From contig OZ253580.1 in NCBI GenBank assembly GCA_965263035.1, positions 352,001 to 416,000 on the forward strand: DNA of 64,000 nt, in the 5' to 3' direction. Source of the DNA: Acidobacteriota bacterium (GTDB taxonomy: Bacteria; Acidobacteriota; UBA6911; RPQK01; JAJDTT01). The notes beneath the pieces are model-generated. The model searched no databases, was not told where the DNA came from, and saw only the letters and a list, made by a program, of their open reading frames with translations. This document shows positions 8,948-24,118 of the stretch, one piece after another. A program made the translations under genes and the position numbers. Numbering within the stretch: the stretch's first letter is position 1; each line of letters opens with the position of its first letter.

Positions 8948-9166
8948 ATGCTGACAATCCGACTTCCGGCCGAGATTGATGCCCGTCTCGAGCGTCTCGC
9001 AGAAGAGGCAGGCAAGACCAAGAACGACTACGCCCGTGAAGCCATCCTGGAGAAGATTGAGGAGATGGAAGACTTGCAACTGGCCGGGCAGGTTTTGGAA
9101 CGAGTTCGCAAGGGGGAAGACAGAGTCTTGAGTTCCGAACAGATGTGGCGTGAGTTGGAAGATTGA
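8948..9166 (+). CDS. Ribbon-helix-helix antitoxin (RelB/StbD/CopG-like)
   Basis: MLTIRLPAEIDARLERLA..GKTKNDYAREAI...EDLQLA. Confidence 0.8.
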   Translation: MLTIRLPAEIDARLERLAEEAGKTKNDYAREAILEKIEEMEDLQLAGQVLERVRKGEDRVLSSEQMWRELED

Positions 9167-9245
9167 GTATGCTGAGAGTGTCCAGAAGCCTGTTGGAAAG
9201 CAGAATCGGCAAACTCAACAGCGTCTTCGGGATTACTTGGAATTT
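9150..9245 (+). pseudogene. Truncated RelE/StbE toxin remnant
   Basis: WKIEYAESVQKPVGKQNRQTQQRLRDYLE resembles a RelE N-terminus overlapping the antitoxin; the catalytic C-terminal part (YRVGDYR-like) is absent. Confidence 0.6.
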
Positions 9246-9299
9246 CCAATGAAACGTGGAGGAAGAGTGGGGGACAAGAATGTCCCCTGCTATGAGCCG

Positions 9300-10016
9300 T
9301 CATTCAGCGGTGGCTGGATGGACCGTCGTGGCCGGGGCCTTCCCCAGCAGGGAACCTTTTTCCAGATGATGGTTGATCCGGGCGAAAGCCGCGGCGCGGG
9401 GATCGTGTGTGACCATGACAATGGTTTTGCCGAAGTCCCGGTTCAGGGCCTCCAGCACGTTGAGGATGTCTCCAGCCGAGTCGGCGTCCAGGTCACCGGT
9501 CGGTTCGTCGGCCAGGATGAAGGTGGGATCGGTGACGATTGCCCGGGCGATCGCTACCCGCTGTTCCTCGCCTCCGCTGAGCTGGCGCGGATAGTGGCGT
9601 ATTCGGTCCGACAGGTTCACCAGTCTCAGGGCGGTCTCCACATGCTCTCGCCGTTCCTGTCGGGAGAGTGAGGTCAGCAGCAAGGGGAGTTCGACGTTCT
9701 CGAAGGCGGTCAGGACAGGGATCAGGTTGAAGTGCTGAAACACGAATCCCACGTGTTCATTGCGCCAGACAGCCAGTTCGTCTTCGCTGAGTGCAGTCAG
9801 ATCTTCTCCCAGGACCTGGAGTTGGCCGCCGGTCGGCCGGTCAATCCCGGCAATCAGGTTGAGCAGCGTGCTCTTTCCGGAGCCGGACGGTCCCATCAGG
9901 CTGATGAAGTCCTGATCGCGGATATCCAAGGTGATGTCCTTCAGAGCGACGACCTGGACCGTATCACGCTGGAACACGCGGCTCAGATTGCGCATTTCGA
10001 TCAATACCTTCGTCAT
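9300..10016 (-). CDS. ABC transporter ATP-binding protein (MacB/LolD family)
   Basis: [29 protein letters not shown]. Confidence 0.95.
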
Positions 10017-10267
10017 CCCGTGTCCTCAGCGGTAGTGTCTTCAGCCCCGGAATCGGTCCGCTTGCGAAAGAAAGTGACCTGAACATCCATCTCCGGCCGA
10101 AGGTACTCATCCGGTTCCAGAATCTGGACCTTCACCTGGATCGTGGCTCGCTGCCGGTTGGCCTCGGGTGCAATCTCTTCCAACTCACATTCGTATTCCC
10201 GCGCGGGATAGGCGATGGGAGACATCCTGCACCCGTTTTCGGGCGAGATGTTGTGAAAATCGGATTG
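10013..10267 (-). pseudogene. 3' fragment of the interrupted periplasmic adaptor (HlyD/MacA-family) gene
   Basis: QSDFHNISPENG...EIAPEANRQRATIQVKVQILEPDEYLRPEMDVQVTF is a typical MFP C-terminus; its stop overlaps the ATPase start. Confidence 0.9.
10257..10267 (+). repeat. attL core AAATCGGATTG
   Basis: Identical to 20813-20823; lies exactly at the break point of the adaptor gene. Confidence 0.9.
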
Positions 10268-10302
10268 AGGGTCGCGAAGTATAATAAGGGGGAGGACACA
10301 AC

Positions 10303-10479
10303 ATGACGACGAGGACAGCGCACGAGATTCTGATGGAGGTCCGACGGGACCCGAACGCGACGAGGGAAGATCGGGACTTCGCCTATCGAAAGTACCTGCG
10401 GGCACTCACGGTCCAGTTCAAGCCGGCCTGGAAGACGGCCATTCGGACGGTCGGGACCCGACGGGAAAGTGCCAGATGA
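10303..10479 (+). CDS. 58-aa hypothetical protein upstream of the integrase
   Basis: GGAGG RBS, ATG 10303, MTTRTAHEILMEVRRDPNATREDRDFAYRKYLRALTVQFKPAWKTAIRTVGTRRESAR; stop overlaps the integrase start (ATGA). Confidence 0.6.
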   Translation: MTTRTAHEILMEVRRDPNATREDRDFAYRKYLRALTVQFKPAWKTAIRTVGTRRESAR

Positions 10480-11504
10480 GCGGACGGGCCAACGGAAACG
10501 TTCTCCGATTCCCCGGCAGGCGGGGCTGCCTGTTCTCGGACGAGCAGATGCGGGAGATGAGGGCCGCCGACCCGGCCAAGGTCCTCCAGACGCCAGCCGC
10601 GTTGCGGCGGTCCACGTTGGAGCGCAGCTTCCTGTCGGTCAGCAACTCCACCTCCAAGACCTACAAGGCCGCGTTGCGCGGGCTCGACAAATGGCTCGAC
10701 GACCGGGACCTCGACGACGGGCTCTTGGCCGACTACGCGTTGAGCCTCCACCGGGACGGGAAGGCCCCGAGCACGATCTCGACCGTGCTGGCGGCCGCGA
10801 GGTTCCGGGCCAAGGCCCTGAGGCAGCCGAACCCCGTCGGACCGGAGACGGAAGCCGTGAGGCGTCACGTCCGGCGGGAGGGCGCCGGACGCGGCAAGGG
10901 ACAGGCCAACCCCCTGACCCGGGACGAGGTGGAGCGGGTGATCTCGACGGCGGAGCGGGACGGCTCGGTCTGGGCGATCCGGGACGCGGCGCTGGTCGCC
11001 GCCGCGTTCTACTGCGGGCTCAGGTCCGCCGAGGTCACGGCCGTCAAGGTTCGGGACCTGGAGTTCCGGGACGACGGGACCGGGCTCCTCTCGATCCGGC
11101 AGTCCAAGAGCGACCAGTTCGGGCGCGGCAAGACGGTCCCCATCCCGAGGCCGGCAGCCCGTCGGATCTCGGCGTGGCTCCGCCTCGCCGGCATCGAAGC
11201 GGGACCGGTGTTCCCGGCAATCCAGACGAACGGGATCGGCGGGGCGCCGCCGAAGGTCCTGGACAGGGCGATGCACAAGGTCCACACGGGTAGGATCATC
11301 CGGGACCGGGCCAAGGCCGCCGGGTTTCCCGGGATCAGCTCCCACTCGATGCGAAGGTCCTTCGCCCAGCACCTGAGCCGGGAGGGATACGAGACCCACG
11401 TCATCGCGGAGGCCGGTCGGTGGTCCGACCTGAGCATGGTCCTGCGGTACACGCAGGGGACCCGGGCCGCCCGGTCCGCCGTCCTCTCGGCGTTCGACGA
11501 GTAG
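10476..11504 (+). CDS. Tyrosine recombinase/integrase (Cre-like)
   Basis: RDAAL...GLRSAEV, SKSDQFG, HSMRR, GRWS...MVLRY catalytic R-K-H-R-W-Y set. Confidence 0.92.
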   Translation: MSGRANGNVLRFPGRRGCLFSDEQMREMRAADPAKVLQTPAALRRSTLERSFLSVSNSTSKTYKAALRGLDKWLDDRDLDDGLLADYALSLHRDGKAPSTISTVLAAARFRAKALRQPNPVGPETEAVRRHVRREGAGRGKGQANPLTRDEVERVISTAERDGSVWAIRDAALVAAAFYCGLRSAEVTAVKVRDLEFRDDGTGLLSIRQSKSDQFGRGKTVPIPRPAARRISAWLRLAGIEAGPVFPAIQTNGIGGAPPKVLDRAMHKVHTGRIIRDRAKAAGFPGISSHSMRRSFAQHLSREGYETHVIAEAGRWSDLSMVLRYTQGTRAARSAVLSAFDE

Positions 11505-12105
11505 ACCCCCCGGCGGGCTGTCACCGCAACACGATATGATTGTTCGCGTGGCCGATTTTCTCCTTTTCTGGCCACAAGCTGCCTCTCGGTTGGGGAGGGA
11601 ATTTGATAGCCTCCCTCCCCGATCCGCCGGGAGGGAGTATAATAGGCTATGCGGGTCGCCACCCTTCCCCCGGCGATCCGTTTCGTGGCCCCGGGAACTC
11701 GCCGATTTCATTGCACAATCTTGGTTCCCTCCCGGGGCCTTTCCCCCTTCTGTCGTGCCGTTGGGGTAAAGTGGTTTCGCAATGAAATTGGCGAGACGCT
11801 TACCGGTCGGCAACGGCCACTTGCACCCAGCGCCAATCGAGCACGCCGTTACTGGGGGGGAGATCCCGCAGCGGCAGCCCAAGATCCACGGACGGAAGCG
11901 GGCTAGGGGAGATCGTCAGGTCTCAGAGAAATCCGTCTAGTCGCGGCTGCTGACGCAGTGAAACGCGGCCCCACGACGGCCCCTGCATATCAGGGTCCGG
12001 GCAAGGATCTGCACCTCGCAAGTCTTGGAACCTTCGGGTTTCGGGCGGGGAGGGGTAGATCCTCGCCCACTCAAACCCCGCATATTCGGATTATGGGGAT
12101 TAAGG
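11505..12105. other. Inverted-repeat-rich non-coding region (candidate ncRNA, origin or packaging site)
   Basis: 17-bp stem 11698-11714/11779-11795, 10-bp stem 11687-11696/11730-11739 and further hairpins; no convincing ORF. Confidence 0.5.
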
Positions 12106-12201
12106 GGGAATGGGGAACGAGAGAGAGAAAGAGTATGTCGCCCGTCGAATCACCGTCTGGGTCAAGACCACCGAGCTAAGGGGGAAGGAGGGAGGTCGAA
12201 C

Positions 12202-12345
12202 ATGATGGACTTGTTCAGGCCGTCGTGCCGAATCCCGGGATTTACGGCCAAATCCCTCAGTGGTATCAGCCGAGGGCAAGGGGACCCCTATGAATTCTCC
12301 CCGGAAAGCAGGGGGCGGTCGTGTGGGGGGTCTTCGCACACATGA
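12202..12345 (+). CDS. 47-aa micro-ORF coupled to terL
   Basis: Strong RBS (AAGGAGGGAGG), ATG 12202, stop overlaps the terL ATG (ATGA). Confidence 0.4.
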   Translation: MMDLFRPSCRIPGFTAKSLSGISRGQGDPYEFSPESRGRSCGGSSHT

Positions 12346-13805
12346 GCCGCCGCCGGGTCGAGTGGCCCCCCTCGATAGACCTCAGGCCGTTCCAACGCCG
12401 GTTCCTGTCCAATCTGCTAAGGCCAAGCACCAGAACCGCCGTCCTCTCGATGCCGAGGGGGAACGGGAAGTCGACCTTGCTCGCCCACGTTTGCCGGAGG
12501 GTCATGGACCCCGGAGACAAGCTGTTCGCCGACGGCGAGGACGTCTACCTCGTCGCCAACAGCCTCCAGCAGGCCGTCAGGACGACGTTCGGGATCTTCC
12601 GGTCGATGATGCCGGACGACCCGTTGGCGTACCGCTTCACCGAGAACACACAGGCCGCCCAATGCCTTCACGTCCGCTCGCGGACCAAGTTGACGGTCCT
12701 CCCCGCCAGCGGCAAATCGGCCTCCGGGATCGTACGGGCCCGGCTGGTCGTCTGCGACGAGCCGGCCGCCTGGCACGCCGCCGCCGGCCTGACGATGTTC
12801 GAGTCGATCCAGGGGGCAATCGGCAAGCCGGGGTCCCGGCTGAAGGTCGTCTACATCGGCACCCGAAGTATCGGCGGCGCCGCCCCCCCGGACCCCGAGA
12901 GCTGGTGGCCGACCTTGATCCGGGAGGGGTCCCGGGGGTTGACCTACGTCCAATTTCACCAGGGGGACCCCGACCGGTGGGACCAGTGGCAGAACATCCG
13001 CCGGGCGAATCCCCTCATGAGCCTCTTCGCCGAGTCGAGGGCCGTCCTGTTGGAGGAGCGGGACAAGGCCCGGACCGATCCCCGGCTCCGTGCGGCGTTC
13101 CTCTCGGATCGGCTGAACGTCCCCCGTGGGGACTCCTCCGCGGTGCTCTTGACGGTGGACGACTGGCGGCGGGTGCTCGACCGGCCCGTGGCGCCGAGCT
13201 CGGGCCGCCCCGTCTGCGGGGTGGATTTGGGCGGCGGACGGGCCTGGTCGAGTGCCGTGGCCGTCTGGCCGGGCGGCAGGACGGAGGCGGTCGCGCTGGC
13301 CCCCGGGATACCGGACCTCGAACGGCAGGAGAAACGGGACGGGGTGACCCCGGGCACCTATCGGCGGCTGGCCGACATCGGCGCCCTCGTCGTGGCCGAA
13401 GGCCTCAGGGTGCCGCCCGTCTCCCTGCTGGTGGCTCACGTGCGGGAATGGGGACCCGCCGCCATCGTCTGCGACCGGTTCAGGTACTCCGAGTTGCAGG
13501 ACTCGAACCCCGGATGCCCGATCGTCCCACGGATCAACAGGTGGTCGAACAGCACGGAGGACATAAGGTGCCTCCGTCGCGGGTGCCTCGACGGACCGCT
13601 CTCGGTGGCCGCTGGCTCCCGGGCCCTGGTCGAGGCGAGCCTGAGGGTCGCGACCGTCGTCAACGACGATTCGGGGAACTCCCGGCTGCGGAAGTCGAGC
13701 AACAACAAGGCCCGGGACGACGTGGCCCAGAGTTGGCTGCTGGCCGCCGGCGCCAACGCCCGCAGGAGGCCCGCCAGGACGCCCAGGATCTCCTTGGTGG
13801 GCTAA
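12342..13805 (+). CDS. terL: Terminase large subunit
   Basis: LRPFQ adenine motif, PRGNGKS Walker A, VVCDE Walker B, IGT motif III, nuclease GVDLG...CDRF...RDD. Confidence 0.88.
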   Translation: MSRRRVEWPPSIDLRPFQRRFLSNLLRPSTRTAVLSMPRGNGKSTLLAHVCRRVMDPGDKLFADGEDVYLVANSLQQAVRTTFGIFRSMMPDDPLAYRFTENTQAAQCLHVRSRTKLTVLPASGKSASGIVRARLVVCDEPAAWHAAAGLTMFESIQGAIGKPGSRLKVVYIGTRSIGGAAPPDPESWWPTLIREGSRGLTYVQFHQGDPDRWDQWQNIRRANPLMSLFAESRAVLLEERDKARTDPRLRAAFLSDRLNVPRGDSSAVLLTVDDWRRVLDRPVAPSSGRPVCGVDLGGGRAWSSAVAVWPGGRTEAVALAPGIPDLERQEKRDGVTPGTYRRLADIGALVVAEGLRVPPVSLLVAHVREWGPAAIVCDRFRYSELQDSNPGCPIVPRINRWSNSTEDIRCLRRGCLDGPLSVAAGSRALVEASLRVATVVNDDSGNSRLRKSSNNKARDDVAQSWLLAAGANARRRPARTPRISLVG

Positions 13806-13920
13806 CCCGGAGAATTCATGGCATAATGACTTGAGCTTGACAATTTGAACCGCATGTGAGAGCCCGCCGCCGCTGATTGGCTGCCACCTCTTTAGCCGTG
13901 ACCACCCGGGAGGGGGAGCC

Positions 13921-14187
13921 TTGACCCGCAAAGAAGCCAACGATCGAATCTACTCGTCGCGACGGTGGCGACGCCTCCGCCTGTCGGTCCTCGACCGTGC
14001 CGGCTGGCGCTGCCGTAAGTGCGGGCGGGCCGGACGCTTGGAGGTCCACCACAAGCACCCTGTTCGCGAGGGCGGCGAAGCCTGGTGCGAATCCAACCTC
14101 CAGCCCCTCTGCCGTACCTGCCACTTCCGCACCCATGTTCCCCTGCCGGCTGACGTGGCCGAGTGGAGGGCCTTCGCCGGTGCCTAA
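13921..14187 (+). CDS. HNH endonuclease (HK97 gp74-like packaging cofactor)
   Basis: YSSRRWRRLR..VLDR..CRKC...EVHH...GG...NLQPLCRTCH. Confidence 0.9.
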   Translation: MTRKEANDRIYSSRRWRRLRLSVLDRAGWRCRKCGRAGRLEVHHKHPVREGGEAWCESNLQPLCRTCHFRTHVPLPADVAEWRAFAGA

Positions 14188-14950
14188 CTTGAGTAGGATA
14201 TGGCGGCTCCACCCATTGACCGGCGGGCAGCCCAGCAGCCACTCGCTCTCGATTTGGGTCGAGACGCTGGGGTTGCGGGGGGAGCCGTACGGGGACCGTC
14301 TGCAAAGCGCGGACCCGCCCAGTTTCATCTCCCCCGCCAGCGGCTCCGAAGAGGCGCCGTCCCCCCGGACGAAACGGGTCTACACCCTGTCCCGCATGGG
14401 CGACCCCGTGCTCGTGGACGTGGGGGACCCGATCGGCTTCGAGACGCTTCGCATACGCCACCGGGACCTGTCCACCCACTCGATCTTCAGCGACGAGGAC
14501 GGCCGGGAGTGGCATGTCGAGAAGTTCGCCGACCCCGACGGGCGGCGGCGCTGGACGCAGGTCGAGCTTGTCGCCTACCGGATCGCCCCACCAGACGAGG
14601 TCCCCTCGTTCACGGCCCCGACGGGCTGGACGCTGGAGGAGGGCGGGGACCCGGTCCAATTGCTGACCGTGTCGGCCCGTGTGCGGACCCAGGACGCCTA
14701 CCACGAATTCGTCGGGCTCCGGTTCGGCCACGTGAACGCGTGGACTGCTACCGGCTTCGTCGTCGGGGAGTACCCCGTCGAACGGCCTGACGGCCTTGAG
14801 GGGACATTGATGTTCACCCAGGGGGCCGACCCCCAGGAAGGTCTCGGGGCGGGGGAGGACTGGCCCGGAGACGGAGCCTGCCTCATCGACGGAATACTAG
14901 CGTCCCGGGCCCTGGAGCTCGGGGCCGTCATTCGAATCAAGGGAACCTAA
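14180..14950 (+). CDS. Hypothetical virion protein; N-half weakly resembles head-closure proteins
   Basis: GTG 14180 with GGAGG RBS overlapping the HNH end; LRIRHRDL...DEDGREWHVEKFADPDGRRRWTQVEL. Confidence 0.5.
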   Translation: MPNLSRIWRLHPLTGGQPSSHSLSIWVETLGLRGEPYGDRLQSADPPSFISPASGSEEAPSPRTKRVYTLSRMGDPVLVDVGDPIGFETLRIRHRDLSTHSIFSDEDGREWHVEKFADPDGRRRWTQVELVAYRIAPPDEVPSFTAPTGWTLEEGGDPVQLLTVSARVRTQDAYHEFVGLRFGHVNAWTATGFVVGEYPVERPDGLEGTLMFTQGADPQEGLGAGEDWPGDGACLIDGILASRALELGAVIRIKGT

Positions 14951-14963
14951 ATGGAGGAGTGAC

Positions 14964-16190
14964 ATGACCAAAGAAACACGCGAGGCGCTGCTGAAAGCCA
15001 GCGAGATTCGCACCAAGATCAACATGGAGCAGGCCAAGTCCGAGCCGAATTCCGAGACCCTGGAGACCCTGCGAAAGCAGTCCCTGGACGCGGAGGGGGA
15101 ACTCCGGGAGGCCCTGGCCAAGGACGAGGACGACGAGTCCATCGCCAAGACCCCGGACCGCGAGGAGCGGGACCGCCTGGAGCTGCGGTCCAAGTCCCGG
15201 TTCCATCGGTTCGTCAGGGCGGCGGTTCTCGGCAGGGAGGTTGACGGCGCGGAGGCCGAGTATGCCGACTCCCTGGGCTGCCCCGGACTGGTCCCGCTGG
15301 ACCTGTTCGAGACCCGGAGCCGGGAGCAGCGAGCGGTCACTCCGGGCCCGGCCGACGGCGACGTGAACAAGACCACGGCTCGGATCGTTCCGGCCCTCTT
15401 CGACCGGTCGGTTGCGCCGTGGCTGGGAATCGCCATGCCCACGGTCGGAACGGGCATCCAGTCCTTCCCGGTGCTGAGCACCAGCCTGACCGGCGGACCC
15501 AAGGCCGAGGACGCGGCAGCCGCGGAGACGGCGGGCGCGTTCACCGTCACCGACGCCGACCCTCGGCGGCTCACCGGCTCGTTCAAGATCCGCAAGGAGG
15601 ACATCGCCAAGATGTCGGGCCTCGAGGAGTCCCTCCGGTCCAACCTGTCCAGCGTCCTGAGCGACGAACTGGACAAGCAGGTCGTCAACGGCACCGCACC
15701 GCACCTGAACGGCATCCTTGAGCAGCTCACCAACCCCACGGCCCCGGCTGCTTCGGCGGAGAGCTTTGTCCGATACGTCACTGCCTTCGCCTCGCACATC
15801 GACGGGTTGCACGCTGTCCAGGAAACGGACGTGCGCGGTCTCGTCGGTCGGCAAACGCTCCGGCACATGGCTGCCACTTTCGGTGGCGCGGCAGTCCGTG
15901 GGGACCGCTCGGCAGCCGAGTACCTGCGCACGTCGTTCGGCGGGGTGCGGGCCACGAGGCGGATCGCGGACCCGGCGAGCAACGTCCAGCAGGTCATCAT
16001 CCGTCGGTCCAACCCGGCAGGCGACCGGGTGGCCGTGGCTCCCGTCTGGAGCGGCTTGGAGTTGATCCGCGACCCGTACACCGAGGCTGGCAAGGGCCAG
16101 ATCGTCGTGACCGGGATCGTCCTGGTCGGCGGGGTCGTCCTGCTTCGGTCCGGCGCATTCGTGCAGGACTCGTTCAGACTGGCCGCGTGA
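14964..16190 (+). CDS. HK97-fold major capsid protein
   Basis: N-terminal helical delta/scaffold-like domain; ELDKQVVNGT...LNGIL; ELIRDPYTEAGKGQIVVT...VLLRSGAF. Confidence 0.85.
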   Translation: MTKETREALLKASEIRTKINMEQAKSEPNSETLETLRKQSLDAEGELREALAKDEDDESIAKTPDREERDRLELRSKSRFHRFVRAAVLGREVDGAEAEYADSLGCPGLVPLDLFETRSREQRAVTPGPADGDVNKTTARIVPALFDRSVAPWLGIAMPTVGTGIQSFPVLSTSLTGGPKAEDAAAAETAGAFTVTDADPRRLTGSFKIRKEDIAKMSGLEESLRSNLSSVLSDELDKQVVNGTAPHLNGILEQLTNPTAPAASAESFVRYVTAFASHIDGLHAVQETDVRGLVGRQTLRHMAATFGGAAVRGDRSAAEYLRTSFGGVRATRRIADPASNVQQVIIRRSNPAGDRVAVAPVWSGLELIRDPYTEAGKGQIVVTGIVLVGGVVLLRSGAFVQDSFRLAA

Positions 16191-16738
16191 TGCCAATCAG
16201 CATCCTGAGGGGTCCCGCCGGCGCGGGCAAGTCGCAGTGGTTAAGGCGGAACGTTGGGGATGGCGAGATCATCCTCGACACCACGCCGATTTGGGCTGCG
16301 TTGACCAACGTCGAGCGGGACCCAGAGGGCCGTTACCGGGTTCGCCTCTTGGGAGAACCCGGATTGCGGGCGGCCCAATTCGCCAAGTGGAGCACCTTGG
16401 CCTTCGCAGCCAGGGAGAACCTGCCGGCTTGGTTCACCATCGCCAACTCCTCACCGGAGGCCATCACCCGCGTCCAGCAGGTCGTGGAGCGTGCCGGCGG
16501 GAGGATCGGGCGGATACGGACCGAGGACCCCGGCTTGGATACGGCCCTGGATCGGCTGGTCATCCCCAAGGCGTCCGTACCGGACGGCTGGGAGATCGTC
16601 GAGGACGGGGACGGCCGGAAGTACCTGCTCGACGAGTGCGACAACGCCCTCGCCAAGTGGTACGCCCGGAGCCCGGTTGCGGCGCGGATCGTCGCGAAGA
16701 AATACGGGCTGGCGTCCCGGCGCTCCGGGAGGAGGTAG
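16187..16738 (+). CDS. Small P-loop NTPase (AAA_33/kinase-like)
   Basis: ILRGPAGAGKSQW...GEIILDT. Confidence 0.65.
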   Translation: MMPISILRGPAGAGKSQWLRRNVGDGEIILDTTPIWAALTNVERDPEGRYRVRLLGEPGLRAAQFAKWSTLAFAARENLPAWFTIANSSPEAITRVQQVVERAGGRIGRIRTEDPGLDTALDRLVIPKASVPDGWEIVEDGDGRKYLLDECDNALAKWYARSPVAARIVAKKYGLASRRSGRR

Positions 16739-16740
16739 AC

Positions 16741-17193
16741 ATGGTGGAGAAGATTCATCGAAACGTCGAGATGGAACTGAGGGAAGGCCGCAACGGGCCC
16801 ATGCTCCACGGGACGATCGTCCAAGAGGGACGGGCCGCCACCGGTGGCCGGGCCGAGTTGTTCGCCCCCGGGAGCGTCACCTGGCCGGAGAACGGCATCG
16901 GGATCAAGGTCGGCCACGACGGGACGGAGGAGAGCCGGACCTACCCCGTGAGGTCCCCGAACGGAGAGATCAGGATCGCGGCCAAGGCCACCGAGCGGAT
17001 GGTCCGGGCCGTCCGGGAGGGCAAGACGGGGATGAGCGTCGAGTTCATCGCCTTGAGTGAGAACCGGACCAAGGGCGGGGTCAGGGAGCTCACCCGTGCC
17101 CTGGTGGACGCGGCGGCCATGACGGCGACCCCCGAGTACCAGCAGGGGCGGGCCGAGCTCCGGGCCAAGCGGGGGTACCAGATATGGCTGTGA
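16741..17193 (+). CDS. Prohead maturation protease (HK97/S78-like)
   Basis: GGAGG RBS, ATG 16741; ELFAPGS, GHD (His), GMSVEF (Ser), RELTRA..TPEY. Confidence 0.75.
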   Translation: MVEKIHRNVEMELREGRNGPMLHGTIVQEGRAATGGRAELFAPGSVTWPENGIGIKVGHDGTEESRTYPVRSPNGEIRIAAKATERMVRAVREGKTGMSVEFIALSENRTKGGVRELTRALVDAAAMTATPEYQQGRAELRAKRGYQIWL

Positions 17194-17498
17194 ATGCCTC
17201 CCAGTTGGCCCTGGCCCTACGCATCGTCGCCGACGAGGGGGATAGCCTGCCATCGGGCCAGACGGCCGTCCTGACGCGAATCCTGGCCGTTTCCGTCGCC
17301 TTGGTCGAGAAGCACGTCGGCGAGGGCGACCTCGACACGGACGTGGAGGACGAGGCCGTGATTCGCCTGTCCGCGTACTTGTTCGACACCGACCCGGTAC
17401 GGTCCAGGGGGAACGCGATGGTCAACAGCGGGTGCGCCCATCTGATCGACCAGTTCCGAACCCGGCGATCCGCCGTGGTCGAGGAGGACGACGAATGA
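17184..17498 (+). CDS. Head-tail connector/adaptor (gp6/gp15-like)
   Basis: ~100-aa helical protein, EAVIRLSAYLFD...SGCAHLIDQFR; lies among the head genes. Confidence 0.65.
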   Translation: MAVNASQLALALRIVADEGDSLPSGQTAVLTRILAVSVALVEKHVGEGDLDTDVEDEAVIRLSAYLFDTDPVRSRGNAMVNSGCAHLIDQFRTRRSAVVEEDDE

Positions 17499-18493
17499 GG
17501 TTCCAAGGCCGGGAGGTCCGGCTACCGTGGGAGCAGCGCTCCACAAGCTACTCGGAACTGATCGTGGCCGGTCTCCAGGCCCGGGCCGGGGGGGATGCCA
17601 ACGCGGACCTGCTGGCCACCGTCGAGGCGGCCTGCGGGATCTGGGAGAGGTCCCTGGCTGCTGGACGGTCATCGGTCCTCAGTCCGGCGCAACTGGCGAT
17701 GATCGGGCGCTCCCTGCTGCTCACCGGCGAGTCGGTCTGGTGGAAGTCCATGGGGTCCGGCCTGATGCCGGTCTCCCAGTGGGACCTGTCGGGCAAGTCG
17801 GCGGCCCAGAGCCGGTGGACCTACAAGCTCACCCTCTCGGTGCCGGATGGGACGATCCTCAAGGACGCCCATTCCAAACGGGTCCTCCACGTGCGGATCG
17901 GCAGCACCCCGGACCGGCCATGGGAGGGCACGAGCCCCCTGGCCCGCTCCGCGGCCACCAGGGACGCGCTGAGGGCGATCGAGGCGTCACTCCGCAAGAG
18001 CCACCAGGGACCGATCGGGGACATTTTGCCCGTGCCGGACCCCACCGACGAGAACCTGAATTCGGCGCTGCTCGGACTCAACGGCAAGACGCTGCTGGTG
18101 GAGCACTCGGAACTCGGCCTGCCGGGAGAGGGTCAGTCCGGCCGGACGACCTGGAACCCGAGACGGATCGGGCCGGCACCCTCGGAGGGAACGGTAGCGG
18201 CCCGGGAACCACTGCGACGTGACCTGCTGGAGGCTGCCGGCCTTCCCCCGAGCATGGTGGCACCGTCCACGGCCAACAGCGCCAGGGAGGGCCTGCGCCA
18301 GTTCCTCTGGACCACCGTCTCCCCGGTCGTCGGGTTGATCTCGGCGGAGTTGGAGCGGGTCGGGCTCGACCCCGAGATCGACATGAGCGGCCTGAACGCC
18401 AGCGACCTGGCGGGCCGCGCCCGGGCACTGGGCCAGATGGTCAAGGCCGGGGTTCCGCTCGACGAGGCCCGGAGGCTCACCGGCATGGAATGA
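17495..18493 (+). CDS. Portal protein (compact, 332 aa)
   Basis: VEAAC..., SLLLTGES, VLHVR...GTSPL, AGLPPSMV, TTVSP...AELE, DEARRLTG match HK97-type portal motifs. Confidence 0.75.
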   Translation: MRFQGREVRLPWEQRSTSYSELIVAGLQARAGGDANADLLATVEAACGIWERSLAAGRSSVLSPAQLAMIGRSLLLTGESVWWKSMGSGLMPVSQWDLSGKSAAQSRWTYKLTLSVPDGTILKDAHSKRVLHVRIGSTPDRPWEGTSPLARSAATRDALRAIEASLRKSHQGPIGDILPVPDPTDENLNSALLGLNGKTLLVEHSELGLPGEGQSGRTTWNPRRIGPAPSEGTVAAREPLRRDLLEAAGLPPSMVAPSTANSAREGLRQFLWTTVSPVVGLISAELERVGLDPEIDMSGLNASDLAGRARALGQMVKAGVPLDEARRLTGME

Positions 18494-18583
18494 GGAATGA
18501 GGCTTGCGGCCACTCGCCGCCGGAGGCATGGGAAAGGTGCTCCGTCAACAAGAACCTACCCACAGCATTCTCCTTTTTCGGTT

Positions 18584-18612
18584 GGGGAGGGGGGCGACCC
18601 CCTCCCCGTTTT
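18584..18612 (+). terminator. Probable intrinsic terminator after the portal gene
   Basis: GGGGAGGGGG-GCGA-CCCCCTCCCC followed by GTTTT. Confidence 0.55.
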
Positions 18613-18623
18613 CCCCCGACCTG

Positions 18624-18995
18624 ATGGCGAAGAACCCCGAGACCGCGGAGCGGATGCGGAGGCTGTGGGCCGACCCGGAGTTCCGGGCCAAGCGGTCCGC
18701 CGCCATCAAGCGGGCCCACTCGAAACCCGACCTCCGGGCCAAGCGCCGGAGGATCACCACGAAACTCTGGCGGGACCCGGCCTACCGGGAAAGGGCCAGC
18801 GCCGCTTTGAGGGAGGCCCAGAACCGGCCGGAGGTCCGGCAGAGGAAGTCGGAGTCCATCCGGCGGGCCCTGGCCGCTCCCGAGCAGCGGGAGCGCCTGG
18901 GGAGGCCGCGCAGGCGGAAGGTCAGCGACTTCGCGGCCGCGTGGTTCGGGCTGGACGAGCCCTATGTCCCGGAGGGGGGTAGTGTCCTAATTTGA
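18624..18995 (+). CDS. Basic helical 17-aa repeat protein (start uncertain; possibly 18528)
   Basis: Five units such as MRRLWADPEFRAKRSAA and TTKLWRDPAYRERASAA. Confidence 0.6.
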   Translation: MAKNPETAERMRRLWADPEFRAKRSAAIKRAHSKPDLRAKRRRITTKLWRDPAYRERASAALREAQNRPEVRQRKSESIRRALAAPEQRERLGRPRRRKVSDFAAAWFGLDEPYVPEGGSVLI

Positions 18996-19107
18996 ATCTG
19001 GCGCAGAAACTCTCCGGGCTCGGCCCTGGAGGAAGGGACCAACGGACACTCAGAGCAGCGGCGGATCAGGATCGCTTCCCGACAGCGTGATTCGGCTGGA
19101 GTCCGGT

Positions 19108-19136
19108 TTGACCATTACAATCCCGGCGCATAGAAT
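19108..19136 (+). promoter_or_regulatory. Sigma70-type promoter of the cargo operon
   Basis: TTGACC-N17-TAGAAT upstream of a GGAGG RBS and TTG 19177. Confidence 0.7.
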
Positions 19137-19176
19137 CAGCGGAAATTGACCGTTCTACCATGGGAGGAGGGTAGTT

Positions 19177-19560
19177 TTGAAGAAACAAAGAAGAACGATC
19201 AACGGTTCCGGTTCAAAATTGAAGCCACCCGAAAAGATACCTATTCAGTGGGTTCACGCAAAGGAATCTCGTTTGGTACCATATCACGGAGTGTTCGGGG
19301 GCCTCATACCCAGGGGGGATCTTCACGTCTCGATTTATGCTGAACAGATGCCCGACCCCGAGCCTGGACAGAATTTTCTCCAGCAGATTGAGGGTCAGAC
19401 AGGTCGGTACAAGGAAGAAAACAAACCCCGGAAGGCATCTCCGATCATCCGTGAGGTCCAGGTTCGATTTGTTATTCCACGCAGTCTGGTGCGCGATGTT
19501 GCGGACTGGTTCGCGCAGAAAGCGAACGAGATTGATCAATTCCCTTCTACCCCAGTGTAA
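19177..19560 (+). CDS. Hypothetical protein, cargo gene 1
   Basis: GVFGGLIPRGDLHVSIYAE...IIREVQVRF...WF; RBS present; lower GC than the head genes. Confidence 0.7.
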   Translation: MKKQRRTINGSGSKLKPPEKIPIQWVHAKESRLVPYHGVFGGLIPRGDLHVSIYAEQMPDPEPGQNFLQQIEGQTGRYKEENKPRKASPIIREVQVRFVIPRSLVRDVADWFAQKANEIDQFPSTPV

Positions 19561-19585
19561 GCAGCCGGACAGAAAAGGAGGTCCG

Positions 19586-20170
19586 ATGACCAAAGAATAC
19601 AAGATGCCCAAATCTACGGCGGATGCTTCCTCCCTTCCGACAGTATTCTTGCTAGTGGGGTCGTTCGTGGCCGTGTGTCCGCTCTACGGAAATCATATAT
19701 CACATAGGGTGGACGGGTCGGGTCCGGAATCACTGACCGCCCCGGAAGTGATTATGAAGTCAGCGACCGATTACCCCAAGGAGCCGAGAGACCCGATTGA
19801 GGGCCCACCTAACGAAGGGGCTCTTCGGATGGTCGAGGAGATTTCAGAGGACTGCGCCATGGATGATTGGGACGGTGAAGGCGCAGACCGGGTCCCCTCG
19901 GAATCGGTCGTGATTGCTCGTAATCTCGTGGCGAATCTGCCCCCCCATGCTCTTACGACCGGACTTGACATCGATGCTACCCCGTTCGGCTCTATCGACT
20001 TCGAGTGGGTGCTGGAGACGGAAGCCATGTTGAACATCCTGATTCTCCCTTCAGGAGAGCTTGGTTTTGCTTATTCCGTTCGTGAGGACGTGGGTGAAGG
20101 CAAAGTGAGATGGGAAGGCTCGATTCCGACTCCTATTGCGGCGGCACTCAACAGAGTATTTGAGCAGTGA
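19586..20170 (+). CDS. Acidic hypothetical protein with WDGxGA motif, cargo gene 2 (candidate antitoxin)
   Basis: AAGGAGG RBS, ATG 19586; DDWDGEGA...LP...IDATPFGSIDFEW. Confidence 0.7.
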   Translation: MTKEYKMPKSTADASSLPTVFLLVGSFVAVCPLYGNHISHRVDGSGPESLTAPEVIMKSATDYPKEPRDPIEGPPNEGALRMVEEISEDCAMDDWDGEGADRVPSESVVIARNLVANLPPHALTTGLDIDATPFGSIDFEWVLETEAMLNILILPSGELGFAYSVREDVGEGKVRWEGSIPTPIAAALNRVFEQ

Positions 20171-20565
20171 GTGGACGGGATTCAGCCCTTGCTCGATTTG
20201 CAGTATTCAGAAAGCAGATAACGCCGAGCCGAACGTTGCCGAAGCTATTCCGGCCAGATAAGCATAGGAAGGTTTCTGTCTTTCGGATTCAGGACAAGAC
20301 TTGCAAAGAGGTCGTATCGGTAGGGGTCGGAGTCGCAAGATCACATCGTGACTCTAGGAACTTATACGGTTGGGCGGAATTGACCTACCGACAGATTCAG
20401 AACATTGGACTATCCGTTGACGATGATGAGATTCCGAAGGACCACTCGCACATCGTGGGATGGCCTGACGATGAGGAGAGGTCTCTACGGTATCGACAGA
20501 GTCTTGCCAAACAGGCTGCGCGAATATTGCTTCCAAAACCTATTCCTGTACGGAACAGCATATAA
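20167..20565 (+). CDS. Candidate ADP-ribosyltransferase/RES-like toxin, cargo gene 3
   Basis: LAR...FRPD...VSVFR...AEL...GLSV..D...HSHIVGWP...LA pattern; basic protein; start overlaps gene 2 (GTGA). Confidence 0.55.
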   Translation: MSGRDSALARFAVFRKQITPSRTLPKLFRPDKHRKVSVFRIQDKTCKEVVSVGVGVARSHRDSRNLYGWAELTYRQIQNIGLSVDDDEIPKDHSHIVGWPDDEERSLRYRQSLAKQAARILLPKPIPVRNSI

Positions 20566-20766
20566 TTGGTGCGAGTCAGCCCTTTCCCTTTGCGGCCATC
20601 GGCAAGAGTTGGTCCACTGACCCCGCCAGACCCGCCTCCAGAATACCATCGGGTGGGCGATGAGAGAAGGGAGAACCCGGCACAGTTGAAACCCATTCCC
20701 TAGTAAGATCTAGTCGGGGTCGGCTATTAACACCCGGCCCCTCTCCCACCCCCTCGAAATTCCCGT

Positions 20767-20795
20767 TTTACAAGGTCGGACGGATGTTGTATAAT
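20767..20795 (+). promoter_or_regulatory. Outward-facing sigma70-type promoter just inside attR
   Basis: TTTACA-N17-TATAAT ending 17 bp before the att core. Confidence 0.7.
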
Positions 20796-20812
20796 TCCCT
20801 TGGTTGTCGTAT

Positions 20813-20823
20813 AAATCGGATTG
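20813..20823 (+). repeat. attR core AAATCGGATTG
   Basis: Identical to 10257-10267. Confidence 0.9.
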
Positions 20824-21726
20824 GCTGATATCCAGCTCCGCCTGCAGATCCCGCAGATCCGCCAACGCCACCAGGACGGCTCCCCCCATAAAGTAGGCCG
20901 AGACCATTTCACCGACTTCAACGACTCGTTCCAGAATGGTGCCGCTGACGGGTGCCCGGATCTCCGTCTCCTGCAGTTGGGTTTGCCAGTACCGGATGGC
21001 CGCCTGGCTTCGCTCGAGCTCGGCACGGGCAGCCTGGATCCGCTCGGTTCGGGGGCCGATCTCCAGGAGCCGGTGGTTTTTCTCGGCGACGGCAACGGCG
21101 GCCTTGGCCATGTCGCGGCGAGACCGGGCATTGTCGACCCGTTGTTGAGCGATGACACCACTTTCGATGAGTTGGCTGAAGCGACGATACTCGAGATCGG
21201 CGATGTCGAATTCGGCACGGCTTCTTTCCAGCTCCGCCTGTGCGATCTCAATCTCTTCCGGCCGTGACCCGGTTTCCAGTTCGGTGAGGCGGGCCCGTGC
21301 CGAGTGAGAATCGGCTTCTGCCTGCTGGAGTTGGGCTCGGAATTCGGCGTCCTCCAGCCGGACCAGCAATTGGCCCTTTTCGACTCGATCCGATTTATCG
21401 ACTCCGACCCAGGCGACCTTCCCCATAATTCGGGAACTGACTTCGATCCGGTGATGAGGGACGATGTAGCCCGAGACGATCAGCAACGGCCCTTCCCGAT
21501 CCGACGCCCCATCGGCCGCAGCACCGGCAGGGGCAACCGTGGCCGGGTCCGCCCGGACCTCGGCCCGCGCCGCATCGGGCGTCTGCCGGGAAAGGTTGTG
21601 GAAAAGCAGCGCAGTCAGGACGGCGCCCGCCAGGAAGGCCGCCAGTCCGATCAGCCACAAGTTGGGGGACGGCCTGGAACGCCGGCGGTTGCGGTCGATG
21701 CGCAACGCTTTCAAATCTTTTTCCAT
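20813..21726 (-). pseudogene. 5' fragment of the interrupted periplasmic adaptor (HlyD/MacA-family) gene
   Basis: TM anchor, lipoyl halves (VSSRIMGKV...VEKGQLLVRL; IRAPVSGTI), coiled coil; similarity stops at ELDISQSD, the att core. Confidence 0.9.
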
Positions 21727-22892
21727 CAGTCTCGCATCACATCGATCAAGCGCACCCGGGCGGCTCGTGCCGCCGGGAGCAAGCCACCGGCAATCCCCAC
21801 CAGGCTGACGAATAGAATCGCTTTGAAGAGAATTTCGGGAGTGATTCGAAAATGGAACAAGACTTCGCTGAAACTGGCGAAATTCGTGGTCCCCGTGGTA
21901 ATGCCGTGGACCGGCAGGGCCATGACACAACCCACGACTCCTCCCAGCAACGCCAGAAAAACGGACTCCGCCAGGAAGGATGCCAGGATGCTCCGTCTGC
22001 GAAATCCCAGTGCCCGCAAGGTCCCAATCTCTTTGAACCGGGCCATGACGGTACCGTACATCATGTTCATGGCGGCAAAGCAGGAACCGATTCCCATGAC
22101 CACCGCGATGAAGATGCCCAACGCCTTGAGTCCCACGGAGGATATCGTCTGTCCCTCGTAATATTCGGTTTGGGGAATGGCTTGCAGTTCGATGTTCCGA
22201 TCCTCCTCGATCCGTTTCGCCAGAGCCGCTCGAGCCTGTGCATTATTGGCGCGCACCAGGAAAGAGGTGTAGATCGGTCGATTCCAGGCTAACGCAATCT
22301 CGTCGTAGTCCCCCCAGATTTCGGAATCGTAGGCCGTGCCACCAGCATCGAAAATACCCACCACGGACCATTCAGTCTGCGCGATGGCCAAGGTATCGCC
22401 CAGCTTCATGTTCTTGAAGCGACGCGACAGTGAACGGCTCACGATCAGTTCCCGCACGCCTTTTGCATGGCGCCGTCCCTCGACGATCCGGACTTCCGGC
22501 CGCATTTCGAAGCCCCGGTTGCCGGTGCCGCGCACGACAATGTTCGAAGTCTCGTTTGCTCCCGCAATGCGCTCATGATTGATGACGACGATGAGCTCGC
22601 CGGAAGCCCACGGCTCATCGTCTTCGTCGCGAGCCACCTCCGGCAGAAAGCGGACCTTCGGAAAGAGGTTCCGGTCCAGATAGCTGTTGGTCTCGTTCTG
22701 GGAACCTTGCCGAATGACCACCAGGTCATTGGGGTTTCCGGTGTTGACGAAGGTCGAGTCGAGGCCTTCGATGAGGGCCATCATCGCGACCAGAATGGCC
22801 ACTGTGAACCCAATTCCCAATGCGGTCATCAGGGTGCCGACTCGCCTTACCCAGAGACTCCGCAGGTTGTATCGAATGGGGATCTTCATCAC
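21726..22892 (-). CDS. ABC transporter permease (MacB/FtsX family)
   Basis: EIGTLRALGF motif; 4-TM topology with a large periplasmic domain. Confidence 0.92.
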   Translation of the reverse strand: MMKIPIRYNLRSLWVRRVGTLMTALGIGFTVAILVAMMALIEGLDSTFVNTGNPNDLVVIRQGSQNETNSYLDRNLFPKVRFLPEVARDEDDEPWASGELIVVINHERIAGANETSNIVVRGTGNRGFEMRPEVRIVEGRRHAKGVRELIVSRSLSRRFKNMKLGDTLAIAQTEWSVVGIFDAGGTAYDSEIWGDYDEIALAWNRPIYTSFLVRANNAQARAALAKRIEEDRNIELQAIPQTEYYEGQTISSVGLKALGIFIAVVMGIGSCFAAMNMMYGTVMARFKEIGTLRALGFRRRSILASFLAESVFLALLGGVVGCVMALPVHGITTGTTNFASFSEVLFHFRITPEILFKAILFVSLVGIAGGLLPAARAARVRLIDVMRD

Positions 22893-22966
22893 GCTCTATC
22901 CGCGCCGGTTACGAACCGTGTTCCAACCGCCGTCTTGGTGCTGCGTCCGTCCTTCACCACGAACCG

Positions 22967-24118
22967 CTAGCCCACACTTTGCAATGCTGCGAGAGTCGGA
23001 CGCCGGGCCGCCTGCCAAGCGGGCAGGCCGGCGGCGAGTAGTCCGATCACGGCTCCAATCAAAATGCAGACCGCGATCGTGGAGAATTGGACTTCGAAAT
23101 TCTGGATGAACCCGTTGCTGATGGCCTGCATCGGCACGTACTGGAAAATCAGGCGAGCGCTCAGCGCGCCGAAGCCTGCTCCGCTCATTGCCAAGAAAAG
23201 CGACTCACTCAACAACAAACCCAAAACCTGCGCCTTCCGGAAACCCAGGGTCTTGAGAATCCCAATCTCCCGTACGCGCTCGCGGATGGACATGGCCATG
23301 GTGTTCGCCGCTACCAGACTGACGGCAAAGATCACGGCCAGACAGATGCTGCTGATCAGAAACTGGACGTTCCCCAGCATGGAGACAAACCCCATGATGA
23401 AGGCTTTCTCAGTTTCAGTCTTGGTGGGAGCCATCGAGTTCTTGAAGAGGCCGTCCACGTCCTCGGCGATGGCCGACAACATCTCGGCTGAAGAGGCCCG
23501 GATCGTGAAGGTCCCGGTAACGCCTCTGTCGTCCAACGTTTCATTGAAGTAATCCCAATGGAAATAGATGCTGCCGCCCTCATCGCCCCCGCCCTGGTAG
23601 ATGGCGCGGATCTTCAACTCCATTTCGGTCGGGAAGAGATTGCTGCCGGTATGAATCGTCTGCCCCAGCTGCCAGCCGAACCGGTCGGCCACGACTTTGC
23701 CCACCAGCGCACCGGAACGATCCTGCAGAAAGGCTTCTTTCTGCTCGTCGGGAACGATGATATCGGGATAGACCCGAAAGAAATCGTCAGTATCGGAGGC
23801 AAACTGCGCCAAGCTGACCTCAGTGCCGTTATGGTTAAAGAGGCCGCCAAACCACATCGATCCGATCACGGCTTCCACACCGTCGACGGCGGCGATTTTT
23901 TCCCGATAGGAGGTGGGCAGCGTGTTGAACAGGGAGATCTTGTGCCGGACGATGAGCCGCAAGGCCGAGTCCGGGGTCTCGGGTGGACTGCTCAACTCGT
24001 CGAGCACCGTCATCAGAGTGGCCACCAGGAAAATCGATGCTCCGATGCTACTCGTCGTCAACAGAGTCCTGAGCTTGTTTCGGAACAGATTCCTGGCGAG
24101 CAGTCTGAAGAACTTCAT
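22967..24118 (-). CDS. ABC transporter permease (MacB/FtsX family)
   Basis: RNLFRNKLRT, ERVREIGILKTLGF. Confidence 0.92.
   Translation of the reverse strand: MKFFRLLARNLFRNKLRTLLTTSSIGASIFLVATLMTVLDELSSPPETPDSALRLIVRHKISLFNTLPTSYREKIAAVDGVEAVIGSMWFGGLFNHNGTEVSLAQFASDTDDFFRVYPDIIVPDEQKEAFLQDRSGALVGKVVADRFGWQLGQTIHTGSNLFPTEMELKIRAIYQGGGDEGGSIYFHWDYFNETLDDRGVTGTFTIRASSAEMLSAIAEDVDGLFKNSMAPTKTETEKAFIMGFVSMLGNVQFLISSICLAVIFAVSLVAANTMAMSIRERVREIGILKTLGFRKAQVLGLLLSESLFLAMSGAGFGALSARLIFQYVPMQAISNGFIQNFEVQFSTIAVCILIGAVIGLLAAGLPAWQAARRPTLAALQSVG

Follow-up and report, generated by a model that had tools for sequence, protein, structure and literature searches.

Phage satellites that build their own heads have been documented mainly in Proteobacteria and Firmicutes, together with one system from Actinomycetota. 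The present analysis concerns a capsid-encoding element of 10,556 bp located at positions 10257-20823 of a 64-kb stretch of DNA (the window) from contig OZ253580.1, which belongs to a 6.2-Mb genome (assembly GCA_965263035.1) of probably acidobacterial origin. The closest described systems are the phage-inducible chromosomal islands that form capsids (cfPICIs). EcCIEDL933 from Escherichia coli O157:H7 and its like are integrase islands of ~10-15 kb that encode their own large terminase (TerL), HNH endonuclease, HK97-type capsid, prohead protease, portal and head-tail connector, with no tail or holin (PMC10085698). The same source reports 969 surveyed cfPICIs from Proteobacteria and Firmicutes and a SatelliteFinder model with 11 core components, of which at least nine are required, and with no tail or holin (PMC10085698). 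MulchRoom and MiniFlayer of Streptomyces are presented as capsid-encoding satellites without an obvious replicase, and the outsourcing of replication to a helper is a published idea (PMC10690885). PICMIs (phage-inducible chromosomal minimalist islands) are described as minimal satellites whose helper supplies most functions (PMC10803314).

The element in the window is a real and precisely bounded capsid-forming satellite of reduced gene content. It encodes TerL, an HNH endonuclease, an HK97-type capsid, an S78-type protease, a portal and a gp6-like adaptor. With a probability of about 0.6, it is an integrated and apparently intact satellite from a lineage of this probably acidobacterial genus and related soil bacteria. 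Such a satellite would package a 10,556-bp genome and would depend on a helper.

The element lies between two copies of the 11-mer AAATCGGATTG. The identical ends, the single-strand gene set and the discrete element described in the initial annotation are confirmed (Table 1). It is a tyrosine recombinase element integrated via this 11-bp core into a macA-like gene. The N-terminal ORF (open reading frame) of the interrupted gene reads '...AELDISQSD' as far as the core and the C-terminal ORF reads 'QSDFHNISPENG...QVTFF', and an ABC ATPase gene is found downstream of the split gene at 9300-10016. Orthologues of the N-terminal part are present in all eight other genomes of the same genus, with 78-91% identity. 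The exact core was present in one of the five orthologous loci that were fetched, and this locus (L050, the 91% orthologue) was analysed further. In L050 the adaptor gene is unbroken and reads '...ELDISQSDFHNISPDNGC...', the core occurs once, and the two flanks correspond to the outer flanks of attR and attL. Additionally, a contig from metagenome run X6 (depth 93.6) joins 10256 to 20813 and skips 10556 letters, with 11 letters fitting both sides and just 22 letters on the shorter side of the joint. In the same run the flanks are covered at ~90-140x and element-like pieces, which are 90-99% alike, at 2.5-10x. In run X5 the identical element occupies this site as well. Since the unbroken orthologue and the skipping contig agree with the direct repeats, the element is a precise mobile unit. 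No tRNA gene was found in the 64-kb window, and an Rfam scan of positions 9000-22000 (E <= 1) returned no match.

All plausible genes between the core copies are on the plus strand, several overlap via ATGA or GTGA, and Shine-Dalgarno sites precede most of the head and packaging genes. The eight recognised core genes are all full length in comparison with their relatives, and the third-position GC is 0.83-0.94 for the core genes scored by the ORF caller, so the intact and coupled reading frames noted at first inspection stand. The integrase translation features an HxxR motif and a C-terminal LRY, and it has paralogues in six sister elements. TerL features GNGKST and LVVCDE motifs, with no Pfam family above the cut-off and no Protein Data Bank (PDB) match by sequence search. 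The capsid profile gave a single weak match among PDB sequences, 9lbm_F (E 0.0065), and the PDB sequence search for the portal gave 0 matches. The protease has no direct Pfam or PHROG match; it is 33% identical over 135 aa (E 5e-8) to an ORF of the virome contig L024 (4504-5013), which itself matches PF04586 at 1.9e-18, and the HD and GxSxEF positions of the two proteins align. For the protein encoded at 14180-14950, just two homologues were found, one of 232 aa with 93% identity and one of 256 aa with 85%; Pfam, PHROG and PADLOC gave no match, and Atlas gave no lead (best score 0.79).

Table 1. Positions of the features of the element and its surroundings; positions are those of the window except in the last row, which gives genome positions.
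Feature	Position	Strand	Evidence or remark
Interrupted MacA/HlyD-type adaptor gene (target), C-terminal part	10013..10256	-	C-part ORF 10013-10267
attL core AAATCGGATTG (11-mer)	10257..10267		Identical 11-mer at opposite end; single copy in uninterrupted orthologue L050
ORF1, 58 aa	10303..10479	+	Shine-Dalgarno GGGGGAGG upstream; ATGA overlap with integrase start
Tyrosine recombinase (integrase), 342 aa	10476..11504	+	PF00589 3.3e-18; phrog_1 8.3e-31
Non-coding region, 816 bp	11505..12320		No third-position GC signal, no Rfam match
Doubtful 47-aa ORF	12202..12345	+	ATGA-coupled to TerL ATG 12342; GGAGGGAGG 6 nt upstream; contains cos-like motif
GGGGACCCCT, candidate cos/terminase-recognition motif	12280..12289	+	Shared position near terL or contig ends
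Large terminase TerL	12321..13805 (GTG 12321 or ATG 12342)	+	phrog_9 3.7e-35, residues 18-478
HNH endonuclease, 88 aa	13921..14187	+	PF01844 5.9e-9; phrog_589 6.7e-20
Protein without family, up to 256 aa, fast-evolving	14180..14950	+	Conserved place between HNH and capsid
HK97-type major capsid protein, 408 aa, charged N-terminal region	14964..16190	+	PF05065 1.9e-9, 37.7 bits vs cut-off 24.2
P-loop kinase, polynucleotide-kinase-like fold, 182-183 aa	16187..16738	+	Walker A and AlphaFold2/Foldseek (model-based)
Prohead protease (S78/HK97 gp4 type), 150 aa	16741..17193	+	Via homologue in L024
Head-tail adaptor (HK97 gp6-like), 104 aa	17184..17498	+	AlphaFold2 and VIA-align
Portal protein, 332 aa	17495..18493	+	PF04860 6.8e-11, 42.4 bits vs cut-off 39.1, C-terminal third; phrog_12 1.2e-8
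Stand-alone basic repeat protein	18537..18995	+	Repeats of a kind seen on GIY-YIG, HNH and Mom enzymes
Three low-GC cargo genes	19177-19560, 19586-20170, 20167-20565	+	Sigma-70-like site 19108-19136
attR core AAATCGGATTG	20813..20823		Matches attL core; metagenome contig joint
Interrupted adaptor gene, N-terminal part	20824..21930	-	N-part ORF 20710-21930
Six further paralogous head-only elements	17445-22715, 1785878-1794452, 4879694-4887252, 5099131-5106036, 5137191-5144189, 5351871-5358445		25-55% protein identity

Two small proteins of the head operon were assigned with the aid of structure prediction. The AlphaFold2 model of the adaptor is helical, with a pLDDT of 87.6 and a pTM of 0.78. 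The identity of this protein depends on VIA-align, since Foldseek by itself gave nothing significant (nothing at E <= 0.001); there was no direct family match, and the PDB profile search returned 0 matches. VIA-align placed the model closest to the SaPI1 neck (9mu2_A, Z 8.7), the phage Milano neck (Z 8.6) and HK97 gp6 (3jvo_A, Z 8.3), and 26 of its 27 top rows are neck or portal-tail entries from phages, gene transfer agents (GTAs) or satellites. The P-loop protein has a Walker A sequence, GPAGAGKS, that is invariant in six of six paralogues. One confident AlphaFold2 model of five was obtained (pLDDT 80.9, the remaining four 58.9-63.5), and Foldseek matched it to T4 Pnk (2ia5_D, E 2.4e-5, TM 0.49). 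There was no direct family match, and its profile found Walker-A-level matches only among PDB sequences (E >= 0.04). The model suggests that the head operon includes a polynucleotide kinase (PNK)-like kinase.

Tail, lysis, repressor, AlpA, primase/Rep and small terminase (TerS) families were not recognised in the element by Pfam, PHROGs or PADLOC, in agreement with the initial annotation, which had described a capsid-encoding element with none of these functions. No family was assigned to ORF1, to the gene at 14180-14950, to the repeat protein or to any of the three cargo genes, so absence here means 'not recognised'. PADLOC returned no match for the seven unassigned proteins. The sole 'terS' label in the element is a weak match of the P-loop protein to phrog_4581 (E 7.8e-4), a family that also covers the HNH protein, and TerS proteins are diverse. 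Positions 45-108 of this 'terminase small subunit' profile match the HNH protein and positions 124-166 match the P-loop protein, and some phages therefore seem to fuse both domains. The head-completion family was not found in the element and is represented by PF05521 in the relative L032. In the 6.2-Mb genome there is no VapE, and the AlpA family occurs at four places, none of them inside any of the seven elements described below. The tape-measure family PF10145 is absent from the genome (other tail families were not searched), and the portal family PF04860 is found at four places: one is a locus with a portal fragment near 5,648 kb, and the other three are within these elements. This distribution suggests that a helper would come from outside and is probably non-resident.

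Seven of the 11 cfPICI core components were counted in the element without running SatelliteFinder, namely the integrase, TerL, HNH, capsid, protease, portal and adaptor, and no tail or holin family was found. Because at least nine are required, the element is not filed as a cfPICI member. The integrase and the TerL, HNH, capsid, protease and portal genes of a cfPICI are present, a transcriptional regulator of the AlpA, MerR or Stl type and a primase-replicase were not seen, and of the two head-tail joining proteins one, the fold-supported gp6-like adaptor, was observed. EcCIEDL933 is annotated (NZ_CP008957.1:1680329-1694760) in the order integrase, helix-turn-helix (HTH) protein, ..., DUF927, ssb, ..., capsid, protease, portal, head closure, connector, HNH, one hypothetical, TerS, TerL. 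The relative order capsid-protease-portal is thus shared, and the gene order that had been offered as a distinction from cfPICIs does not distinguish the two. The proposed separateness from the cfPICI type is also weakened by the relatives L032 and L033, whose capsids are 54-55% identical to that of the element and whose left arms resemble those of cfPICIs, both with a P4-type integrase, L032 with AlpA and iterons and L033 with a VapE primase/helicase.

There are several differences from cfPICIs. A regulator, a primase-replicase, a TerS and a head-closure gene all went unrecognised in the element, whose head operon is predicted to include a PNK-like kinase. No arm-binding domain was recognised in the integrase, which targets a site inside a protein gene, not beside one. 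The host is probably a member of Acidobacteriota, in contrast to the Proteobacteria and Firmicutes. In tblastn comparisons with EcCIEDL933 only TerL (23.5% over 268 aa, E 6.5e-6) and HNH (E 5e-5) were detectable, and hhalign of the capsid and connector profiles with the EcCIEDL933 proteins gave probabilities below 1%, with single-sequence templates and low sensitivity.

A capsid satellite without a replicase, which had been put forward as new, has precedents in MulchRoom and MiniFlayer (PMC10690885). Like them, the element has its own packaging and capsid genes, an adaptor and no obvious replicase, and MulchRoom is annotated with a tyrosine integrase. MulchRoom differs in being 14.8 kb long with 1.6-kb direct terminal repeats, a TerS, a scaffolding protein, a stopper and no protease, whereas the element has an HNH, a cos-like (cohesive-end) motif, a protease and a charged N-terminal capsid region, with no TerS or stopper recognised. 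Contigs of the lineage described here end at a short motif, not at kilobase repeats. MulchRoom was in the phage collection searched and had no tblastn match to this TerL or capsid at E <= 1e-5. PICMIs and the marine virion-encapsidated integrative mobile elements (VEIMEs) are also small integrative satellites that rely on a helper, some of them without known replication genes (PMC10803314; PMC9618062). They have no major capsid gene and their concatemers are packaged in helper capsids (PMC9618062), whereas the element encodes its own head.

The head genes also resemble the HK97-type phage head module, with direct matches to Phage_capsid and Phage_portal, a match to Peptidase_S78 via a homologue, HNH-assisted packaging and a gp6-like adaptor. 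Unlike a tailed phage, the element has no recognised tail, lysis or replication module, it is about a quarter of a typical phage genome in size, and its nearest TerL in a cultured phage is 21-23% identical. GTAs are domesticated head-tail clusters with neither integrase nor att sites, whereas the element has both an integrase and att repeats, its site is empty in relatives, and it occurs in several diverged copies.

The element is not alone in its genome. The capsid search gave eight matches at seven loci, and tblastn with all element proteins revealed that the loci are compact, each with an integrase, TerL, capsid, protease and portal, in most cases with HNH and frequently with the P-loop protein. 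The paralogue E1 is broken, with a stop codon in the capsid gene, scattered terL fragments and an insertion sequence (IS). The lists of att repeats for the sister elements were too noisy to define boundaries, barring a plausible 13-mer pair for E3. An IS of 1.77 kb with a 470-aa transposase has ~17 copies in the genome, including 22690-24463, 1790827-1792599 and 5145349-5147122. Three of the seven satellite-like elements have one of these three copies within or next to them, far above the expectation from the elements' ~1% genome share. The genome also has a decayed composite island at 2,899,000-2,932,000. One of its ends encodes AlpA and a P4-type integrase with 57.6% identity to the L032 enzyme, the opposite end encodes a 102-aa portal fragment, and large helicase-like genes lie between them. 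Parts of the island occur in duplicate at 2,061-2,120 kb.

Relatives were characterized from other genomes of the genus and from more distant sources. TerL relatives occur in four of the eight other genomes of the genus and in seven of 41 genomes overall, this one included. The loci L039, L041 and L042 have the same ~10-kb architecture, and L037 is rearranged. The seven paralogous elements, the TerL relatives within the genus and these ~10-kb loci together show that the element is not a one-off. In an even sample of the phylum the capsid profile (E <= 1e-20) matched three of 301 genomes, all of this genus, so the family is patchy within genomes. Between the integrase and terL, the elements of the same genome and genus contain only small unassigned ORFs. 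Among 46 accessory ORFs that were scanned, the families found were a replicase (one, in L037, PF03090), DUF4145, Phage_HCP, a NikA-like family and a weak MipA.

A large protein database contains 293 capsid homologues, and the best 120 have at least 50% identity. A hand count of the 119 non-self homologues listed placed 32 on contigs of 9.0-12.1 kb, nine on contigs of 12.1-20 kb and 30 on contigs below 9 kb. The 9.0-12.1-kb peak is consistent with free replicons and also with assemblies broken at the borders of elements. Capsids with 54-58% identity were found at three genome loci, two in Vicinamibacterales metagenome-assembled genomes (MAGs) and one in a MAG labelled Spirochaetia. An acidobacterial host fits the Vicinamibacterales relatives, in one of which a flanking gene is 80% identical to a gene of this genome. 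L032 is a 10,747-bp unit between 15-nt repeats, the right one of which is in the 3' end of a tRNA-Ser gene. It contains a P4-type integrase (Arm-DNA-bind_3, Phage_int_M, Phage_integrase), AlpA/HTH_17, an iteron-like array, and a head module with the PF05521 head-completion protein. The array (L032:7265-7391) consists of ~25-nt units (GGGCGGACCTGACGTCCGCCAAG) between two unassigned ORFs upstream of terL and is likely a replication origin. The VapE primase/helicase of L033 matches PF05272 at 3e-54. In the Joint Genome Institute (JGI) metagenomes scanned with the capsid alignment no relative was found. A search of 50,697 cultured phage records (tblastn, E <= 1e-5) gave no capsid match and TerL matches of just 21-23% identity, and no satellites of this kind in Acidobacteriota were found in the literature searched, which was not covered exhaustively.

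The IMG/VR database contains ten relatives, on contigs of 6.5-11.7 kb. The ends of L030, L034 and L035 overlap by 99, 127 and 99 nt, which implies circles of ~11.6, 10.1 and 9.0 kb. Among these, L035 lacks an integrase and encodes a PrimPol-like protein with a Pfam score exactly at the cut-off, and L034 has a neck-terminator domain. An ORF of 700-1,200 aa is located between the adaptor and portal in a sub-lineage of these contigs (L024:5266-8391, L025:5408-9025, L029:4937-7990, L030:6-2582, L026:6179-8269 and L028:5821-7905). This ORF has no Pfam match and a weak 'virion structural protein' PHROG match (1.4e-5), and it may be real or a high-GC artefact.

A short motif near terL is a candidate for the packaging signal. 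The 9-mer GGGGACCCC adjoins terL or is located at contig ends in nine of 24 sequences examined, two of which (L024 and L025) are close kin, and the carriers span sub-lineages with unrelated flanking DNA. The background is 110 copies on both strands of the 6.2-Mb genome. In this element the 9-mer is 41 nt upstream of the GTG start called for terL, and in L032, L031 and L030 it is 42, 72 and 206 nt upstream of the called start, in each case in the same orientation as the gene. In L033 and L042 it is 25 and 216 nt downstream of the called start, again in the same orientation; these starts were probably called too early, which would place the motif upstream of terL there too. The first called terL start codon is 32-61 nt from the first base in six IMG/VR contigs, and the 3' ends of the linear virome contigs L024, L025 and L029 are 19-20 nt past GGGGACCCC. 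These positions suggest that GGGGACCCCT is the terminase-recognition part of a cos site that would be cut ~20 nt downstream. A second copy of GGGGACCCC is found inside terL on the same strand (window 12963-12971), and L033 has two further same-strand copies.

The 816-bp gap between the integrase and TerL genes features nested GGGAGGGA/TCCCTCCC palindromes around a TATAAT (11586-11650) and a 17-nt inverted repeat (11698-11714 and 11779-11795). A tblastn search of the element with 18 queries from relatives (Rep, AlpA, VapE, PrimPol, terL-upstream ORFs, HCP and neck proteins) gave a best E of 0.03 and no remnant. The gap appears to be the likeliest seat of a promoter/operator and an origin. The 47-aa ORF at its right end is probably not a gene. 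Run X6 contains a variant of the element, at a depth of just 2.5x, in which positions 12164-12263, comprising 100 bp of the gap and including the start of this ORF, are missing and the motif at 12280 is kept.

For an intact satellite, the following cycle can be proposed. Excision would be triggered by a helper phage. As no replication gene was recognised in the element, its copying would then fall to the helper or the host, and the gap may serve as promoter/operator and origin. TerL and HNH would cut at the cos site marked by the motif ~40 nt upstream of terL, and would fill a small self-made head sized for ~10.5 kb. The adaptor on the portal would receive the head-closure protein and tail of the helper, which would also supply lysis.

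A number of observations weigh against an intact satellite. Neither a TerS nor a head-closure gene was recognised, and both are normally needed for cos packaging and a stable head. The relatives with AlpA, iterons or a VapE primase suggest that this copy may have lost these functions. No helper phage was identified. In the assembled contigs, which are blind to rare forms, neither a circle (attP) joint nor a depth above that of the flanks was observed, and the runs listed for the element included none of RNA. In most sister elements of the same genome GGGGACCCC was not found upstream of terL, and two of them have only the look-alikes GGGGCTCCCC and GGGGAACCCC. There are also some reservations regarding the protein identities. 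The adaptor Z scores of 8-9 are within the chance range for helical proteins according to VIA-align's own note, the portal match is limited to the C-terminal third and fell below the cut-off (25.4 bits) in the whole-genome PF04860 scan, and Pfam and PHROG matches are the entire evidence for the capsid and portal.

The alternative that best survives, although it is unlikely, is an immobilised derivative of a cfPICI-like element. The left arm with regulator, origin, Rep and TerS would have been lost, with 816 bp of non-coding DNA in its place, the head genes would be intact through recency, and there would be no induction, copying or packaging. The left-arm functions kept in L032 and L033, the PF03090 replicase of L037 and the missing circle junction among the assembled contigs are consistent with such a loss, as are the decayed copies in the genome, namely E1 with its capsid stop and IS and the 2,899-2,932 kb island with only a portal fragment. 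However, the architecture without a recognised Rep or AlpA recurs in six sister elements and in L039, L041 and L042, with one replicase among the 46 accessory ORFs, and the gap contains no pseudogene remnant. The full-length core genes with their high third-position GC and the retained cos-like motif also argue against decay, and the lack of an insertion here in close relatives indicates that the element arrived recently.

It is improbable that the element makes tail-less DNA-filled particles by itself, GTA-like or vesicle-borne, with no need of a helper tail. A full head and packaging set with no recognised tail gene would fit such a maker, as would the finding of no prophage with the tape-measure or HK97-type portal family in the genome. 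The encoded gp6-like adaptor argues otherwise, as the known role of this protein is to join the portal to the neck and tail, and in relatives there is a further head-completion protein or neck-terminator domain. A gene for lysis or release was not recognised, the integrase, att sites and several diverged copies per genome are unlike domesticated GTAs, and we know of no route by which tail-less heads would infect. A deletion remnant of a full-length prophage is very improbable, since the synteny search suggested in the initial annotation found every capsid-sharing locus to be a ~9-12 kb unit or a fragment of one and never part of a full-length prophage, and the cultured phages lack the capsid and are distant in TerL; the one hint in its favour is L040, where a distant TerL (~32% identity to this TerL) is found with no shared capsid in a long, phage-like cluster of same-strand ORFs that were not family-scanned.

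The remaining genes of the element include some conserved or lineage-specific extras, namely the PNK-like kinase and the repeat protein. A word-based search with the repeat protein returned itself only, whereas 1,895 library proteins match it at E <= 1e-3, mostly longer proteins that match in 2-8 stretches each. Among ten top matches that were scanned, one has a GIY-YIG domain, one an HNH domain, and two a Mom and a restriction endonuclease (REase) domain. The repeats are presumably NUMOD3-like DNA-binding repeats, a label that is ours and not a tool result. The sequence suggests that the stand-alone repeat protein is a putative DNA binder, and it might, speculatively, be a candidate for the missing DNA-recognition (TerS-like) role. 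The cargo genes have a GC content of 0.54-0.55, compared with 0.65-0.70 in the head module, and no Pfam, PHROG or PADLOC match; homologues are located at 2,907-2,909 kb of the genome, within the decayed island. ORF1 also has no Pfam, PHROG or PADLOC match and is a candidate excision or regulatory factor. At the right end of the element, a strong sigma-70-like site (window 20767-20795; TTTACA, 17 nt, TATAAT; 11 of 12 matches) points outward, antisense to the interrupted adaptor gene.

A broader and more tentative proposal is that the element represents a lineage, not described so far, of soil-bacterial 'head-only' replicons of 9-12 kb, which would exist as chromosomal islands, circular episomes and linear cos-ended virion DNA. 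The lineage would be defined by the conserved GGGGACCCCT cos signal at terL, by the PNK-like enzyme in the head operon and by sub-lineages, this one included, with complete loss of the regulator, replicase, TerS and head-closure genes. If this is true, such sub-lineages would be true satellite viruses that bring only the integrase, head and motor and obtain replication, neck completion, tail and lysis from a probably non-resident helper.

To our knowledge, few phages of Acidobacteriota have been isolated. The element shows the same own-head strategy in a probably acidobacterial soil lineage, with up to seven diverged copies in one genome and matching 9-12 kb free genomes in virus catalogues. 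It offers experimental handles in the form of an exact att site with a natural empty allele and a candidate cos motif with a predicted cut ~20 nt downstream, as well as a minimal gene set for a small capsid and a conserved PNK-like kinase with a possible role in head assembly or packaging. If versions without a replicase and TerS are mobile, they would mark the lower limit of the gene content of a capsid-forming satellite.

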